Shown: piece after piece, positions 43,673 to 48,910 of the stretch
Position numbering within the stretch: the first letter of the stretch is position 1
Layout: each line of letters opens with the position of its first letter
Notes under the pieces: model-generated
Databases searched by the model: none
Told to the model about the DNA's origin: nothing
Seen by the model: only the letters and a program-made list of their open reading frames with translations
Source of the DNA: Cladosporium halotolerans
Lineage: Eukaryota
DNA: 64,000 nt
Direction: 5' to 3'
NCBI RefSeq assembly: GCF_011745625.1
Contig: NW_027191457.1
Coordinates: forward strand, 620,001 to 684,000
Made by a program: the position numbers and the translations under genes

Positions 43673-45297
43673 GTTGATGATTAATCAGGATGCCGGTGGT
43701 GATGATGTGAGGTGCTCGATGGAGAATTGGTGTTGTTGATGACTGCAGCCTGTCGGAGGCGCAGATGGTGATGGCCTTGGTCGTGAAAGGAGATGGAGAT
43801 GGATGTCGTTGTTCAGAGGGGAGAGGTGGTTGGTGGGAGAAGAATGGTGGGCAGAGTGCGGTGTATTTATTGACGGAGGCTGCGGCTAGCGCGCGCGGCA
43901 AGTCGTAGTCAATCAAAGGTGAAGTGAATGTACAACAAACGCTCGCAGCATTAAGCTCGGTCATGGCTTTTCCACGCGTCGCCAGTGACTTCAGCTCTAC
44001 CAGTCGGTCAGTACAGCTGGGTAAGCATTTGGACAGATGAAATCGTCGTGGATCTGATTAGAGAATACCAATACAAAACCAGATGTCCGTGTCCCTCTGA
44101 CAAAGGCGTTGAAATCGGGTCTGCTTTGTTATCGTTCCGCAAGCACCACTTTCGCACCAACGTCGATGGATCATGCAGTGTCCGGCCGGGGGCACCGTGC
44201 AAGGATACGTCCCCAATCAAAGGTCTTGACAGCAAGGCTAAAGGTAAGAAACCATATGGCAAAAGACGTTATCTGAGCGTCTGGCGACCTGATGAGGCTT
44301 TTGAGGACGTGGACACCCTGTTTTTCGAAGGAACGCGAACCTGGACACCGAATCACTCTCGAAACTTCGCGGTATTGCTGTTAAATTTTGAACTTTATGA
44401 AGCAAAGAAGAGCACGGGGATGACCATATACCATATTGATGCTTGTCGTTGGAATCGATGGGGCCTGTTCCACCCGCAAGCGCCGGGGCAGACGCGGTTT
44501 CCTGGAGTTGACGGCAGCCCCTTTCCCTAAGACAATGTTATTGTTGCCTCATCGGATGGATATCGTTCATAGTATGAAGACATTCAAGCGACTGAAAGCA
44601 GGGCCCACAAGCTGTCACCTGCAAGCGTACCTCCACGTTGAAGTGTCAGCCACAAGGCGGCGGCCCCCTTCGCTCGTGAGCCGCGGTTTGATCGCTTTTG
44701 CATGAAGAAAAGACTATTAAACGCCTTTGAAATTCCTGGAAGTACAGCACAAAGGCGCTCAGCAGAAGCGAGTGCTTTCTTGCTTTGCAAGGGGCCTCGC
44801 CAGTCGCTTCCCATTCCATTTCGATGCTGGCTGGAGGTGATGCGCGACAAGATTACAACCGGTAGCCTTTGAAGACGATCAGTTCTTCCCGCATTACTTT
44901 GATTATCACCAACGATCCAAGTCATTGAGCCGAAAGAGCATATTCTGTGTTACAGCCAAAAGTGAAGTCTGCATAAACCCTTGACCCTCGACCGGCCCGC
45001 CAAGCTGCTGTGACCCTTCTTCAGGCGCGCGTCCGCGTCCGCGACGCGCGCAACGTCAAGCAAAGCCCGCGCCCTCGGCTCGCAAAGAAAACAAACCTAC
45101 CTAAGGTACAACCACCACAAGGCACCGTTCACCACCCCGCGCGCTACGCCCCCGCTGAACCAAATCAGCATCCGGCCGCGCACAAAAGCGCTCCCACAAC
45201 CTCCGCGCATCCACCACCTCCACCACCACCAGCGCCCACCTACTCTCAAACCAACGCCTCGAGACCTCCAACAACACCCACAACACCCACGCCCAGC

Positions 45298-46011
45298 ATG
45301 GCCACAAACCCAACCCCCTTCCCCAGCCGCCCCTACCCCTCCACGCGCGCCCCCCAACCCTGGCCCAGCACGACGCCCTTCGCGCAACCGCCCACCAGCA
45401 ACCCCCAACCCCCCAAAACCGCCCAACAACACGAAGCCGCGCGCCTCGAAGCCGCCCGGCAAGAGACCGCCGAGCGCGCGCGGCGCGAGGCGGCCTCCGC
45501 ACAAGCCCTCGAAGCCCTCTCCGAAGAGCAGCGCGAGGAGATCAACGAGGCGTTCAGCCTGTTCGACCTGGACAAGGACGGGCGGGTGGACTACCACGAG
45601 CTGAAAGTGGCGCTGAAAGCGCTGGGGTTCGACCTGGCGAAGAGCGAGGTGCTGGCGATGCTGCAGGCGCACGGGACGCCGGCGTCCGGAAGGGGGGAGC
45701 GAGGAGGGCAGGGAGGGGGAGTGTCGTTTCTGGGGCCGGACAGGCTGCTGCTGCCGCACGGGGCGTTTGTGAATTTGGCGGCGGGGATGATTGCGGCGCG
45801 GGATCCGAGGGATGAGATTCTGAGGGCGTTTGATTTGTTTGATGCGGGGGGCAATGGGATGATTAGGCTGGAGGATTTGAGGAGGGTTGCGAAGGAGTTG
45901 GGGGAGGGGTTGTCGGATGAGGAGCTGCAGGCTATGATTGAGGAGTTCGATGTTAGAGGGGAGGGAGGAATTGATAGGGATGCGTTTTTGGGTATTTGTC
46001 TGGGGACGTGA
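45298..46011 (+). CDS. CDC31: Centrin (Cdc31), EF-hand spindle pole body protein
   Basis: [38 protein letters not shown] and [11 protein letters not shown]...[10 protein letters not shown]...[10 protein letters not shown]. First in-frame ATG at 45298. Confidence 0.93.
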
Positions 46012-46349
46012 GAGGCATACGATTTGAATGAGGGAGGGCAAGGTTTCTTTCATGGCAGGGGTTACAGTGCGGAGGACTATTATTCAGCGAGGGCGCACTC
46101 GGTGCATCATGGTTGTGATGGGCTTTTGTTTATTCAATTGGATTTCAAAGTGCAATTGGGAGAGGACACCGAAGACGTGAACGAATGCAGAAAGGTTGAG
46201 GATTGATGATAGCTAATTACTTGAAATGCATGGCCTGTTCGGCTCTTATAGCAGACTTGAATAGTAGATCATGATCTGGATGTACTCGTCAGCAACAATA
46301 CTAGGAATGGTGTTCACTGAACAGGATCCAAAGATGCGCTGTGAGAGTT

Positions 46350-46440
46350 GATGTCAGAGTAAGGGCCCGGTCAGGGGCCATTCTCATCAAAGCAGAGCTA
46401 TGTCGACCGTCGTGAGATTGTTTAAAAATCATCCTTGTAT
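46350..46440 (-). ncRNA. snR73: Box C/D snoRNA snR73 (U35-like)
   Basis: AGGATGA C-like box (46435-46429), C' TTGATGA, D CTGA (46357-46354). 13-nt guide TCTCACGACGGTC is antisense to 25S GACCGUCGUGAGA (Cm2959). Confidence 0.88.
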
Positions 46441-46624
46441 GCTCGCAGCGCATGTTTGTATCAGAAAAGGAACTGTGGAACGTACCCTTTACGATTCATT
46501 TGAGTGTTCAAGCCGATGCGGACAGCCAAGCTTATTGCAGAATGCCTTCAGAAGCAACCCTGTCTTTTCACAATGTCAGCCATGACTCGAGCAGGCAAAC
46601 AATTTGAACAGTTGAGCGAGGAAG

Positions 46625-46716
46625 TGTATCAGTTAGAACACTTTTCGTCTTAGCCAACGGTCAAGAAGGCTTGGACATATGCTTGTCTTTGGTGTATGGT
46701 TGGATCATCATATGAT
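46625..46716 (-). ncRNA. snR74: Box C/D snoRNA snR74 (U27-like)
   Basis: ATGATGA C box (46711-46705), D CTGA (46632-46629). 13-nt guide AGACAAGCATATG is antisense to 18S CAUAUGCUUGUCU, and the +5 rule gives Am28. Confidence 0.92.
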
Positions 46717-46870
46717 AGCAAGGCTAGATGTTTGACTTACCAATGCGTGATAGCGAGCTGAGGGTGGGAGACGGAATAATAGAGCAGAACTCCCTGTGGC
46801 CTTGATGTCTGTTAGCCTTGGTTTCAACACGCGACGACAATGTAGTGTGAAAAGAAGTATTGGTATAGAC

Positions 46871-46961
46871 CAATTTCAGTAAGGCATGAATGGTATAAAA
46901 AATGTTTTTGTCTGCATCGGCAAGACCGAATGAGACTCGTCATCAAGTATTCATCAGGTAG
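46871..46961 (-). ncRNA. snR75: Box C/D snoRNA snR75 (U15-like)
   Basis: C box CTGATGA (46957-46951), D CTGA (46879-46876). Guide GATGACGAG is antisense to 25S CUCGUCAUC (Gm2288), with a second element CCATTCATGC antisense to 25S GCAUGAAUGG. Confidence 0.9.
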
Positions 46962-47116
46962 AGGTGGGAAGAGTAAGAAAAGTTTGCGAGCACTTACCAA
47001 GCCGTCGGTAGGATGGCCGTATATGTGCAGTCCGAAAACCTACTTGAGAAGTCTATCAGGCGAGTCAGCAAGATGCCCAACAGCCTTCAAATGTGTACAC
47101 AAAGATGGAGACAAAG

Positions 47117-47210
47117 TAGGATCAGTGGACGAGGTTTTCTAGGCCTGTCACAAAGTGGCGTCTCTGCTCATGAATTTGATTCGGAGCCCAGTGCCGTTTC
47201 ATCAAAGAAT
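47117..47210 (-). ncRNA. snR76: Box C/D snoRNA snR76
   Basis: TTGATGA C box (47205-47199), D CTGA (47125-47122). Guide GCACTGGGC before D' CCGA is antisense to 25S GCCCAGUGC (Cm2197 region). Confidence 0.85.
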
Positions 47211-47661
47211 TGAGGGTAGACAAAAAGTGGGAGACTAACCCAAGGGTGGTGTTGACCAGACTGGACAAGATCATGCTGCAGCAAAATCTGCAAACAATCG
47301 ACTGAAGCCATTGGAACTACGCATGACAGCGTAGCATCCAGTATCCTTCCGCTCCAAGCGGGTATTTGTTCCCGATGTGTTGTGCAGACTCATGGCTGCT
47401 TTTTACGGCGAACCATTGTCTAGCAGCGCTGTGACCGCCATGCAAATGCGTCTGAATGATGAGAGCTTTCACCAAAAACCGACAGAGGTAATGGGGATCA
47501 CGCGTAAAGGTCAGTCTCGTAGAGCACCTTGTCGCGGCACAGCATGCTTTGTCCATAGCTCGATCGGTGCCGAGGCGGGAGTGCAATGCGGAAGTCCTAA
47601 TGTCTTTTCATCCTGTCAGCGAATATTCATGCAAGCCTTGAAGTAGATGCATGGTAGGATT

Positions 47662-47769
47662 GCAAGTGAAATCAGTATAGCCTAATATCGCCAGCGACCT
47701 GAGTAAAGGTCTCGGCCGGTAATTCCATTGTATAGCGTATTTATAGTCCAAATATTCATCATCACTTGG
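47662..47769 (-). ncRNA. snR77: Box C/D snoRNA snR77
   Basis: GTGATGATGA C box (47765-47756), D CTGA (47675-47672), CAAGTG/CACTTG stem. Guide TGGAATTACCG before D' CCGA is antisense to 18S CGGUAAUUCCA, and the +5 rule gives Um578. Confidence 0.9.
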
Positions 47770-47946
47770 TGGGGAGGGTAGAAGAGGATTGTCGCGAACT
47801 GACCTGGACGAGGTTGCATGCAGATGACTCTGCTCGGGTGTGGTGCGATCATATGTCGGCTGGGTGTTGGGAAAAACTGCTGCACTGCGTTGCTTGTTAG
47901 CCAATGGCTCAGGTGTAGACATGGCAACGAGCAAGGAGAGAGCGAC

Positions 47947-48044
47947 TTTGATATCAGACTGACGTGCAAGTTGCGTTTCAGTCCTCCGAAGAGGTCAAAG
48001 ACTCTAGTTTGATTGCGGTTGATTGTTTTTTTCATCTCCAAAGA
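47947..48044 (-). ncRNA. snR78: Box C/D snoRNA snR78 with additional snR72-type guide
   Basis: C-like GAGATGA (48038-48032), D CTGA (47957-47954), terminal CTTTG/CAAAG stem. D' guide CAAACTAGAGTC is antisense to 25S GACUCUAGUUUG (Um2421). D guide TTGCACGTCAG is antisense to 25S CUGACGUGCAA (Am876). Confidence 0.87.
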
Positions 48045-48910
48045 GATCGAGGAAGGATTGGTGTGGAGGGGATGCCATCGTACCTTAGCAGCTGCTACAG
48101 CTTTTCAAACCATGCTGTCCGGTTGGAGCAATCTCTGTGAGACTGCAATATCACGCGGAGGTGATTGTTTGCGAATGCAAATAGTTGGTATGAGAGTGGG
48201 AGGAGGTTGTCCATCGTGAAGCAAAATACGAAGCTGCTCGCTGTGCCAAGTCCAGCTAAGCCGGATTCAGATGCCGCCCGCGGCGCTCACGGCCATGAGC
48301 CTTGACGATAACTGCGGTTGATGGCTGAGGTTGTCATCTGTTCGTCTTGATCCATTCCGAGGCGAAAACGTTTGTCCGTTTCGGCGTACCAAGAAGATCT
48401 CGACAGAGTGCTCAGTTTATCGCTATTTTCGCGCGCATGGTGCGACAGACATTGGCAATTGGGGAAGCAATCTACGTGCATTCGACCGCGACATTCTCAG
48501 GCTCGCCGGGCCGACTCGAAAGAGAACTAGAAAGCAGCTGTTGCTTGAGCTAAAAAGCAGGATCGATCTTGCAAATCGAGTGGTGCTTTTTTCGGAACTG
48601 GTAGCGCAGTCTGGAGACGTTCATCGCAAAGTCCACCGGTTGAAGGCATATCCTTCCTGTTCTTGAAACGACGCATGTACCTACCATAATAGCTACATTC
48701 GAAGCACGTTCGTGAGAGTTCTGCGCATGGTAGTAAAGTATATGCAGACCACTTCGAAGCGACCCTCAGGTAGGTAGCCCAGTAGGGCGATAAGCATTCC
48801 TGCAGGCCCTGTGGAGTGGGCGCTTAGACCGGTTGCCTTTGTTCACCGCATGACAGGGAGACGATGCGACACGTTCTGGCATCGCTCATCTCCCACGAGA
48901 TACCTCAATA

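Follow-up and report, generated by a model that had tools for sequence, protein, structure and literature searches.

A spliced non-coding gene beside a centrin gene in Cladosporium halotolerans carries one rRNA-methylation guide snoRNA per intron

The minus strand of the window, by which we mean the whole 64,000-nucleotide stretch analysed, carries at positions 46276–48156 a spliced non-coding gene that lies beside a centrin gene and holds one rRNA-methylation guide snoRNA in each of its introns. We consider it very probable that the locus is the ortholog of the fungal snoRNA gene cluster I, consisting of a non-coding host and six intronic box C/D snoRNAs that, read 5' to 3' on the minus strand, follow the order snR78(+72), 77, 76, 75, 74, 73. 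Gene calling restricted to proteins finds nothing in this 2-kb stretch despite its six snoRNAs, which are predicted to be responsible for seven conserved methylations of rRNA. The neighbouring centrin/Cdc31-like EF-hand gene (45010–46011, plus strand; EF-hand_7, 5.8e-21; top solved structure Cdc31, 7.5e-39) is convergent with the host gene, and its long open reading frame probably has a 5' portion that is non-coding or intronic.

Structure and splicing of the host transcript

Six introns of 177–210 nt lie on the minus strand within 46276–48156. Their donors at 48083, 47803, 47239, 46997, 46740 and 46485 read GTACGA, GTCAGT, GTTAGT, GTAAGT, GTAAGT and GTACGT, and every intron has a branch site, CTAAC or CTGAC, whose A precedes the AG by 11–13 nt, as had been claimed in an earlier note that described six GT...CTRAC...AG introns at this locus. 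The placement of the snoRNAs is regular in all six, with the C box beginning 29–50 nt past the 5' splice site and the end of the D box lying 65–78 nt from the 3' splice site.

Evidence for splicing was sought in assembled contigs (Logan) of four sequencing runs, a test that reports presence rather than absence and that does not extend to the ends or levels of mature snoRNAs. Two runs from two studies were informative for RNA: X2, whose kind was guessed as RNA, and X7, a metatranscriptome according to its record; a further run, X1, is possibly DNA. Mismatches to the window at several places show that the contigs come from relatives or other strains. Contig cover is absent at 45800–46360 and, in X2 and X7, at the snoRNA units, and such gaps were counted as no evidence. 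Contigs of X2 and X7 bridge introns 1–5 at the exact predicted donors, the joints showing CT..AC on the plus strand, which corresponds to GT..AG on the minus strand.

Intron 1 (47885–48083, 199 nt, GTACGA...CTAAC...CAG) is joined at 47884/48084 in X2 and at 47884/48085 in X7, while intron 2 (47604–47803, 200 nt, GTCAGT...CTGAC...AAG) and intron 3 (47053–47239, 187 nt, GTTAGT...CTGAC...TAG) show the joints 47603/47804 and 47052/47240, respectively, in both runs. For intron 4 (46801–46997, 197 nt, GTAAGT...CTAAC...AAG) the X2 joint is 46799/46997 (cut +1), and one run, X7, shows a second acceptor 7 nt beyond the first (intron 46794–46997), with the joint 46792/46997 (cut +1). Intron 5 (46564–46740, 177 nt, GTAAGT...CTGAC...AAG) yields the joint 46564/46743 with one letter between in both X2 and X7, which we read as a 46563/46741 junction combined with an A>G difference at 46742 that is itself listed separately. 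Intron 6 (46276–46485, 210 nt, GTACGT...CTGAC...CAG) is predicted from its sequence signals. Thus, of the junctions anticipated in the earlier note, those at donors 48083, 47803, 47239, 46997 and 46740 were recovered, but none of the four runs yielded a reported joint at donor 46485. An X1 joint at 46755/46835, which skips 79 positions and has AG..GA ends, was also seen and may represent a deletion in a relative.

The contigs define a host transcript that extends at least over 46363–48156 on the minus strand (X7 record 22 reaching 48156 and X2 record 9 reaching 46363); this span is a lower bound. Exon 1 (48084–48156), with an unmapped 5' end, is covered by X7 record 22 over 48085–48156, joined to 47884. 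It is followed by exon 2 (47804–47884, 81 nt; X2 record 13 and X7 record 22) and by exon 3 (47240–47603, 364 nt), which is non-coding and unbroken in X2 records 12 and 13 and X7 records 19–22. Exon 4 (46998–47052, 55 nt) and exon 5 (46741–46800, 60 nt) are both seen in X2 record 9, and exon 6 (46486–46563, 78 nt) in X7 record 17 (46486–46564) and X2 record 9. The earlier note had let the gene begin at 46200; intron 6 ends at 46276 and position 46200 falls within the unmapped last exon.

Exon 3 was also considered as a hidden structured RNA or H/ACA snoRNA, a candidate that was rejected: the same strand gave no Rfam match at E up to 10, and the fold z-score of -1.19, with 10 of 100 shuffles folding equally well, indicates no special structure.

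The snoRNA units, their guides and targets

Box C/D snoRNAs are stable RNAs of about 70–110 nt that are bound by fibrillarin, Nop56, Nop58 and Snu13 and direct methylation at a predicted site. They have a RUGAUGA-like C box towards the 5' end, separated by 70–110 nt from a CUGA D box towards the 3' end, and an rRNA antisense element of roughly 10 nt or longer that stops just short of box D or D'. Each of the six introns contains one C-box-like heptamer (GAGATGA, ATGATGA, TTGATGA, CTGATGA, ATGATGA and AGGATGA for units 1–6, those of units 1 and 6 being variant forms) with a CTGA D box 82–91 nt further on, in agreement with the earlier claim of one C...D unit per intron. The D' boxes are degenerate in several units (TTGA, CCGA, CCGA, CTCA and CCAA) and indistinct in unit 6, so that the sequence does not pin the target of unit 6 to a single nucleotide.

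The 64-kb window contains three gathering-level Rfam matches, all of them in this region and on the minus strand. Unit 4 (46874–46959) is matched by snR75 (RF01185) over model positions 1–88 of 88 at 46874–46959, with 72.9 bits against a gathering threshold of 40. Unit 3 (47120–47209) is matched by Afu_513 (RF01514) with 74.5 bits against 48 and, below threshold, by snR76 (RF01209) with 31.1 bits against 55; these two models share their guide, which points to the same target for unit 3. Unit 2 (47663–47768) is matched by Afu_300 (RF01509) over model positions 1–91 of 91 at 47670–47766, with 45.2 bits against 40, and has a weak second match to SNORD65 (15.6 bits). At E up to 10, a listing that leaves out two overlapping matches of the same clan, there was no match to snR77 and none of units 1, 5 and 6 was matched by the yeast snR78, snR74 and snR73 models. 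Unit 1 (47946–48043) gave a sub-threshold match to snoZ122 (27.7 bits, E 0.37), as did unit 6 (46350–46440) to snoZ161_228 (20.5 bits, E 1.7), while unit 5 (46624–46716) gave no Rfam match at all at this cut-off. Hence the Rfam scan, which the earlier note had named as a check, bears out units 2, 3 and 4 but leaves unit 5 unmatched and units 1 and 6 below threshold, and these last three units, lacking a family-model match, were assigned by guide and target. The sub-threshold matches to snR76, SNORD65, snoZ122 and snoZ161_228 share guide elements with the units.

Guides were tested against rDNA from two metagenome contigs, L047 and L053, which were confirmed by Rfam as carrying SSU, 5.8S and LSU rRNA and which derive from uncultured eukaryotes and not from this organism. 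The perfect antisense matches measure 9–13 nt, the range given in the earlier note, and they lie directly upstream of D or D' in all six units. Unit 1 (C box 48038–48032, D box 47957–47954, terminal stem CTTTG/CAAAG) is a double guide with snR78 and snR72 functions, its D' guide (48012–48000, 13 nt) and D guide (47969–47958, 12 nt) being perfect Watson–Crick complements of two LSU sites. The snR77-type unit 2 (C box 47762–47756, D box 47675–47672, terminal stem CAAGTG/CACTTG) has a perfect 11-nt D' guide to SSU rRNA at 47727–47717. For the snR76-type unit 3 (C box 47205–47199, D box 47125–47122) the D' guide at 47195–47186 comprises 9 nt plus one G-U pair, and for unit 4 (C box 46957–46951, D box 46879–46876) a 9-nt D' guide at 46944–46936 is accompanied by a second rRNA complement of 10 nt at 46893–46884. 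Perfect 13-nt D' guides are present both in the snR74-type unit 5 (C box 46711–46705, D box 46632–46629), where the element at 46688–46676 pairs with SSU positions 25–37, and in the snR73-type unit 6 (C box 46435–46429, D box 46357–46354), where that at 46417–46405 pairs with LSU rRNA.

Judged by match length alone, units 1, 5 and 6 exceed chance expectation and units 2, 3 and 4 do not: dinucleotide shuffles reached the observed length in 2, 4 and 0 of 300 cases for the former and in 28, 252 and 111 of 300 for the latter. Across the rest of the window a 13-nt match occurred in just 2 of 464 tiles of the same size.

Targets were assigned by the rule that the modified nucleotide pairs with the fifth nucleotide upstream of box D'. 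For units 3, 4 and 1 this gives LSU targets at successive distances of 91 nt and 133 nt; the former recurs in 57 of 65 rDNA loci with both motifs and the latter in 5 of 7. This spacing is identical to that of the Neurospora crassa sites Cm2159, Gm2250 and Um2383, and the rule-predicted target of unit 5, SSU A28, has the same number as the 18S-Am28 of N. crassa, as reported in PMC2780460. The guides also pair with the rRNA segments listed in the N. crassa catalogue (Table 1 of PMC2780460) for homologues of the corresponding yeast snoRNAs. The Rfam matches and guides together reproduce the unit order of the yeast polycistron that the earlier note had recognised. Its identification of the six snoRNAs as snR78, 77, 76, 75, 74 and 73, with the yeast targets Um2421, Um578, Cm2197, Gm2288, Am28 and Cm2959, agrees in order and targets, but unit 1 is not snR78 alone and carries the snR72 function as well. 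It is this double guide that reduces the units to six, from the seven of yeast.

A 10-nt LSU match in unit 2 (47758–47749, present in 22 loci) was set aside as a guide, being of chance length, overlapping the C box and having no D' box after it. At box D, units 2, 3, 5 and 6 show only G-U-rich runs of 9–12 nt towards rRNA, and they are therefore treated as single guides. Next to box D, unit 3 has an element that is conserved in the Aspergillus and yeast models and lacks any rRNA complement of at least 10 nt; it might have a target other than rRNA.

Biogenesis and alternative explanations

From the observed units, guides and five splice junctions we infer the subsequent steps of snoRNP assembly, trimming and methylation. 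The host would be transcribed by RNA polymerase II as a minus-strand non-coding gene of seven exons or more, whose successive introns would provide the snR78/72 double guide and the snR77-type, snR76-type, snR75, snR74-type and snR73-type snoRNAs. The core box C/D proteins may assemble at the C/D motif before the intron is excised from the pre-RNA, after which the lariat freed by splicing would be opened by debranching and trimmed by exonucleases to the protein-protected snoRNA, and the spliced exons would be a non-coding by-product. The resulting snoRNPs would then direct 2'-O-methylation of two positions in 18S rRNA, predicted to be the equivalents of A28 and U578 in yeast numbering, and of five in 25S rRNA, predicted to be those of A876, C2197, G2288, U2421 and C2959, the snR72-type guide being presumed to count its fifth nucleotide from box D rather than box D'.

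The contig data bear on how the last snoRNA is released. X2 record 9 has introns 3, 4 and 5 spliced out and yet reads unspliced from 46564 down to 46363, across donor 46485 and unit 6, and this, like the missing 46485 joint, would be expected if units 1–5 were spliced out and the snR73-type unit were cut by endonuclease and exonucleases from an unspliced 3' segment, as in yeast. One host would then release its snoRNAs in both ways, from introns and by yeast-like endonucleolytic cutting, and be intermediate between the two known fungal arrangements. We regard such a mixed release as unlikely, given that the signals and geometry of intron 6 match those of introns 1–5 (GTACGT, the CTGAC A 13 nt before CAG, and 78 nt from the D box end), that X7 record 17, which has 5 unplaced letters, begins precisely at 46486, the pattern expected of a spliced contig, and that contigs show presence only and a partly spliced precursor is to be expected; moreover, all cluster I snoRNAs of euascomycetes are reported as intronic in PMC3596301. 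A wholly yeast-style process, with RNase III (Rnt1) cutting between the units of one unspliced polycistronic precursor and the GT...AG pairs being coincidental, is the mode used in Saccharomyces cerevisiae and would fit the X1 contigs that cross some splice sites unspliced, although X1 may be DNA. It is scarcely conceivable in view of five exact GT..AG joints in two runs from two studies and of the constant distance between branch site and AG in all six introns.

The nature of the host and of its passengers was also questioned. The spliced model contains a 111-aa ATG open reading frame spanning exons 2–3, its longest, and one could picture a protein-coding host with this product, the snoRNAs being merely intronic passengers. 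This is very improbable: the exon-3 portion matches nothing in Pfam at E up to 1, the 13 listed contig differences inside the frame show no clear third-position excess, with 3, 4 and 6 at first, second and third codon positions (a hand count, 19 further differences being outside the listing), and the published cluster hosts, according to PMC2780460, have open reading frames of 159–267 bp and were judged non-coding. As in those hosts, a long or conserved reading frame is lacking here, conservation having been gauged by the hand count only. Some units might, alternatively, be decayed or chance look-alikes and no functional guides, given that shuffles attain antisense matches as long as those of units 2, 3 and 4 and that units 1 and 6 have divergent C boxes. 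Against this, which we hold to be extremely doubtful, units 2, 3 and 4 are the gathering-level Rfam matches across full model length, the six units contain, by hand count, only 3 of the 40 substitutions listed (19 more being outside the listing), and X1 contigs from more distant organisms match unit 3 (47120–47207) and part of unit 1 while their flanks are unrelated.

Comparison with known snoRNA gene clusters

Under the preferred reading of a non-coding host with six intronic snoRNAs, the arrangement is one already known in filamentous fungi and the locus is an ordinary ortholog of cluster I, a known fungal element, as the earlier note had held, that is described in PMC2780460 and PMC3596301. 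In Neurospora and other euascomycetes these sources describe cluster I as intronic, with one snoRNA per intron and gas5/UHG-like non-coding hosts, so that the GAS5-like organisation proposed for this locus, which is borne out by splicing of introns 1–5 in the RNA-run contigs, was already published for this group. The N. crassa cluster I of Liu et al. 2009 (PMC2780460) comprises CD5, CD24, CD12, CD7, CD21 and CD31 on one chromosome, has the same six functions and is likewise all intronic; CD5 is a double guide like unit 1, its box D directed to the snR72 target and its box D' to the snR78 target. The same text assigns an additional 15-nt box D guide of CD24 to U5 snRNA, gives longer matches than those found here for the snR77-type (13 versus 11 nt) and snR75-type (12 versus 9 nt) guides, and reports alternative splicing of the host, to which the two intron 4 acceptors 7 nt apart may be compared.

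The survey of 14 euascomycetes by Luo et al. 2013 (PMC3596301) gives the cluster I order as snR78-77-76-75-74-73, all intronic, with the snR72 and snR78 introns recombined into a single snR78/72 unit. The present locus shows the same order on one strand, one snoRNA per intron (introns 1–5 spliced, intron 6 predicted) and the fused double guide in unit 1 (13-nt D' and 12-nt D guides), and we see no difference of substance from that survey. Homol-D co-regulation is described as specific to fission yeasts in PMC4138321. There is, then, no new biology in the locus, since publications on filamentous ascomycetes already cover its arrangement and non-coding host, the snR78/72 fusion and alternative splicing of the host. 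Its main value is for annotation. It also offers a well-resolved example, with five junctions in RNA contigs and a very regular spacing between snoRNA and 3' splice site, and provides a useful template for finding further snoRNA host genes in this genome.

The S. cerevisiae snR72–snR78 polycistron has the same snoRNA functions and order as the locus but consists of seven separate units that share an unspliced precursor, whereas here there are six, one per intron, with snR72 fused into the first. Qu et al. are said to have found in 1999 that the yeast precursor is processed by RNase III and Rat1. Mammalian snoRNA host genes are characterised by a 5'-TOP feature and by sensitivity to nonsense-mediated decay (NMD). 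GAS5 and UHG differ from the locus in their snoRNA content and have no sequence relationship to it, but they share with it a multi-exon non-coding host, one box C/D snoRNA per intron and a fixed distance to the 3' splice site, which is 65–78 nt here.

Host-gene layout and splicing

The minus strand between a centrin-like gene and the next gene carries six GT...CTRAC...AG units, numbered here 5' to 3' along the host gene, with introns 1 to 6 of 199, 200, 187, 197, 177 and 210 nt, respectively. All six were found exactly at the donors listed in an earlier note based on the sequence alone (48083, 47803, 47239, 46997, 46740 and 46485). In six of six introns the branch-site A lies 11-13 nt upstream of the acceptor AG, and each intron carries one C-box-like heptamer, 29-50 nt downstream of the 5' splice site, together with a CTGA D box which lies 82-91 nt beyond the C box and ends 65-78 nt upstream of the 3' splice site. 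Terminal stems of 5-6 bp, read from the flanking sequence, occur outside the boxes of units 1 and 2. The centrin-like neighbour is an ORF at 45010-46011 (plus strand) with EF-hand domains and its top solved-structure match is Cdc31 (7.5e-39). The EF-hand matches cover residues 172-329 and are preceded by about 160 Pro/Ala-rich residues (45010-45500, plus strand); the gene model probably has a later start or introns.

Assembled contigs from four public sequencing runs were aligned to 45800-48600. Two runs, X2 (at a guess, RNA) and X7 (recorded as a metatranscriptome), are from separate studies, and introns 1 to 3 (47885-48083, 47604-47803 and 47053-47239) are absent from contigs of both. Intron 5 (46564-46740) is skipped in both, allowing a one-letter difference at the junction, and intron 4 (46801-46997) is skipped in X2 contigs. 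In X7 the intron 4 acceptor lies 7 nt further on than in X2, an alternative 3' splice site at 46794-46800, and this agrees with the alternative splicing of snoRNA hosts described for Neurospora crassa in the available text of Liu et al. 2009 (PMC2780460). The five skips have plus-strand ends CT..AC, equivalent to minus-strand GT..AG, and exon 3 (47240-47603, 364 nt) is unbroken in X2 and X7 contigs. Scattered differences between contigs and window imply that the contigs derive from relatives or other strains, and they are uninformative on mature snoRNA ends. Contigs from the remaining runs, X1 and X5, are unspliced pieces and these runs may be DNA. One X1 contig skips 79 nt across the border of intron 4 and exon 5 (46755-46835, ends AG..GA), a segment that a relative may have lost by deletion, much like the "exon loss" described by Luo et al. 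2013 (PMC3596301).

The junctions proposed earlier are thereby corroborated for introns 1 to 5 by the X2 and X7 contigs, whereas for intron 6 (donor 46485) no bridging contig was found among the four runs over 45800-48600, and it stands as an intron predicted from its sequence signals. One X2 contig (record 9) has introns 3-5 spliced out and yet reads through 46363-46564, while one X7 contig (record 17) starts precisely at 46486 and leaves five letters unplaced. That the last unit is freed from an unspliced tail, and not by splicing, we consider improbable, and we retain intron 6 as a predicted intron; which of the two routes unit 6 takes is the sole point of some interest.

The longest ATG ORF, in a spliced model with generous ends, encodes 111 aa. 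A Pfam search with its exon-3 part, up to E 1, gave no match, and the contig differences within the ORF, among those listed (13, counted by hand; the listing omits 19 others), are distributed 3/4/6 over codon positions 1/2/3. The fold of exon 3 was no better than that of shuffles (z -1.19).

Assignment of the snoRNA units

An Rfam scan at gathering threshold, over both strands of the whole 64-kb window, gave only three matches, all on the minus strand at the snoRNA locus, where the earlier note had expected Rfam hits: unit 4 to snR75 (46874-46959; 72.9 bits, gathering 40), unit 3 to Afu_513 (47120-47209; 74.5 bits, gathering 48) and unit 2 to Afu_300 (47670-47766; 45.2 bits, gathering 40). A permissive scan restricted to 45800-48600 added weaker matches for unit 3 (snR76, 31.1 bits, under the gathering 55), unit 2 (SNORD65), unit 1 (snoZ122, E 0.37) and unit 6 (snoZ161_228, E 1.7), with guide elements underlying the alignments, while unit 5 had no match even there. 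The outcome by which the earlier note would be refuted, a lack of Rfam hits, did not occur, but Rfam by itself backs just three of the six units.

Reference rDNA consisted of metagenome contigs (99 loci), fetched with a pattern of unit 4's two guide complements. By Rfam, one contig, L047, covers SSU, 5.8S and the 5' part of LSU (2512 model positions), and another, L053, the LSU 3' part. The latter occupies 1839 nt (1-1839) for 1134 model positions, suggesting that the LSU gene of this uncultured organism has an insert of about 700 nt, possibly a group I intron. Perfect antisense matches to this reference from uncultured eukaryotes are formed by the D' guides of unit 1 (13 nt, 48012-48000, LSU), unit 2 (11 nt, 47727-47717, SSU 565-575 of L047), unit 4 (9 nt, 46944-46936, LSU), unit 5 (13 nt, 46688-46676, SSU 25-37) and unit 6 (13 nt, 46417-46405, LSU), by the D guide of unit 1 (12 nt abutting CTGA, 47969-47958, LSU) and by a D-adjacent element of unit 4 (10 nt, 46893-46884, minus strand, LSU); the D' guide of unit 3 (47195-47186, LSU) pairs over 9 nt plus one G-U.

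Dinucleotide shuffles, 300 for each unit, reached the length of the longest match seen 2, 28, 252, 111, 4 and 0 times for units 1 to 6, respectively. Same-size tiles from the rest of the window reached 13 nt in 2/464 and at least 12 nt in 9/464. Consequently, units 1, 5 and 6 are carried by match length alone and units 2, 3 and 4 by Rfam, the two kinds of evidence being complementary across the six units.

Predicted rRNA targets

The fifth-nucleotide rule was applied to the D' guides, after each of which come a single nucleotide and TTGA, CCGA or CTCA. Units 3, 4 and 1 are thereby predicted to target LSU positions 2283, 2374 and 2507 of L047, with gaps of 91 nt, kept in 57 of 65 loci with both motifs, and 133 nt, kept in 5 of 7. 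The same spacing separates Cm2159 (snR76 homologue), Gm2250 (snR75) and Um2383 (snR78) in Table 1 for N. crassa, in the available part of PMC2780460. There too, CD21/snR74 is assigned number A28, the predicted SSU target of unit 5, and the CD31/snR73 duplex (13/0) equals in length that of unit 6, whose D' box is so degenerate that it does not pin down the exact target nucleotide.

Of the two rRNA-complementary elements in unit 4, the one at D' is the Gm guide. The D-adjacent element has its LSU complement 19 nt downstream of the site under the D' guide in 88 of 99 loci, and the duplex ends at position 5, counted from box D; this element may provide an accessory pairing, more likely than guide a second methylation. 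In unit 3, the 22 nt before box D (47147-47126, minus strand) match the Afu_513 consensus at nearly every letter and align partially with that of yeast snR76. Against the reference SSU and LSU they gave no complement as long as 10 nt, just 9-nt runs with two G-U pairs, and are conserved without an obvious rRNA target. For the segment upstream of box D in unit 2 (47697-47676, minus strand) the reference rRNA held no convincing complement; the N. crassa snR77 homologue, CD24, is assigned, for U5 snRNA Am62, a box D guide of 15 nt (PMC2780460).

Unit 1 had been identified as snR78. That function holds, but not snR78 alone, since another LSU site is matched by the guide at box D. This pair is exactly the kind of double guide reported, in the text available, for N. 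crassa CD5, with box D directed to Am856 (snR72 function) and box D' to Um2383 (snR78 function) (PMC2780460). In euascomycetes the snR72 and snR78 introns recombined to a snR78/72 unit (PMC3596301, available part), and this joining explains why the locus has six units and yeast seven.

Comparison with fungal cluster I

In N. crassa, according to the available text of Liu et al. (PMC2780460), box C/D snoRNAs are intronic in 45 of 55 cases, five snoRNA clusters are shared with yeast, cluster hosts have ORFs of just 159-267 bp and are "most like" UHG/gas5, and cluster I is alternatively spliced. Cluster I, snR78-77-76-75-74-73-72, was surveyed across fungi by Luo et al. (PMC3596301), and the available part describes every euascomycete cluster I snoRNA as intronic, in hosts without long ORFs.

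The observation of the earlier note is confirmed, with contig joints for five of the six introns, and its reading as a GAS5-like host is supported; the double guide in unit 1 and the predicted status of intron 6 are refinements. Mammalian GAS5/UHG work in the same way, although their sequence is unrelated to this host. The C. halotolerans locus shows each tested feature of fungal cluster I in the available parts of both papers (PMC2780460, PMC3596301); useful for annotation only, and biologically nothing new, it is an ordinary ortholog of this published, conserved fungal snoRNA host gene.
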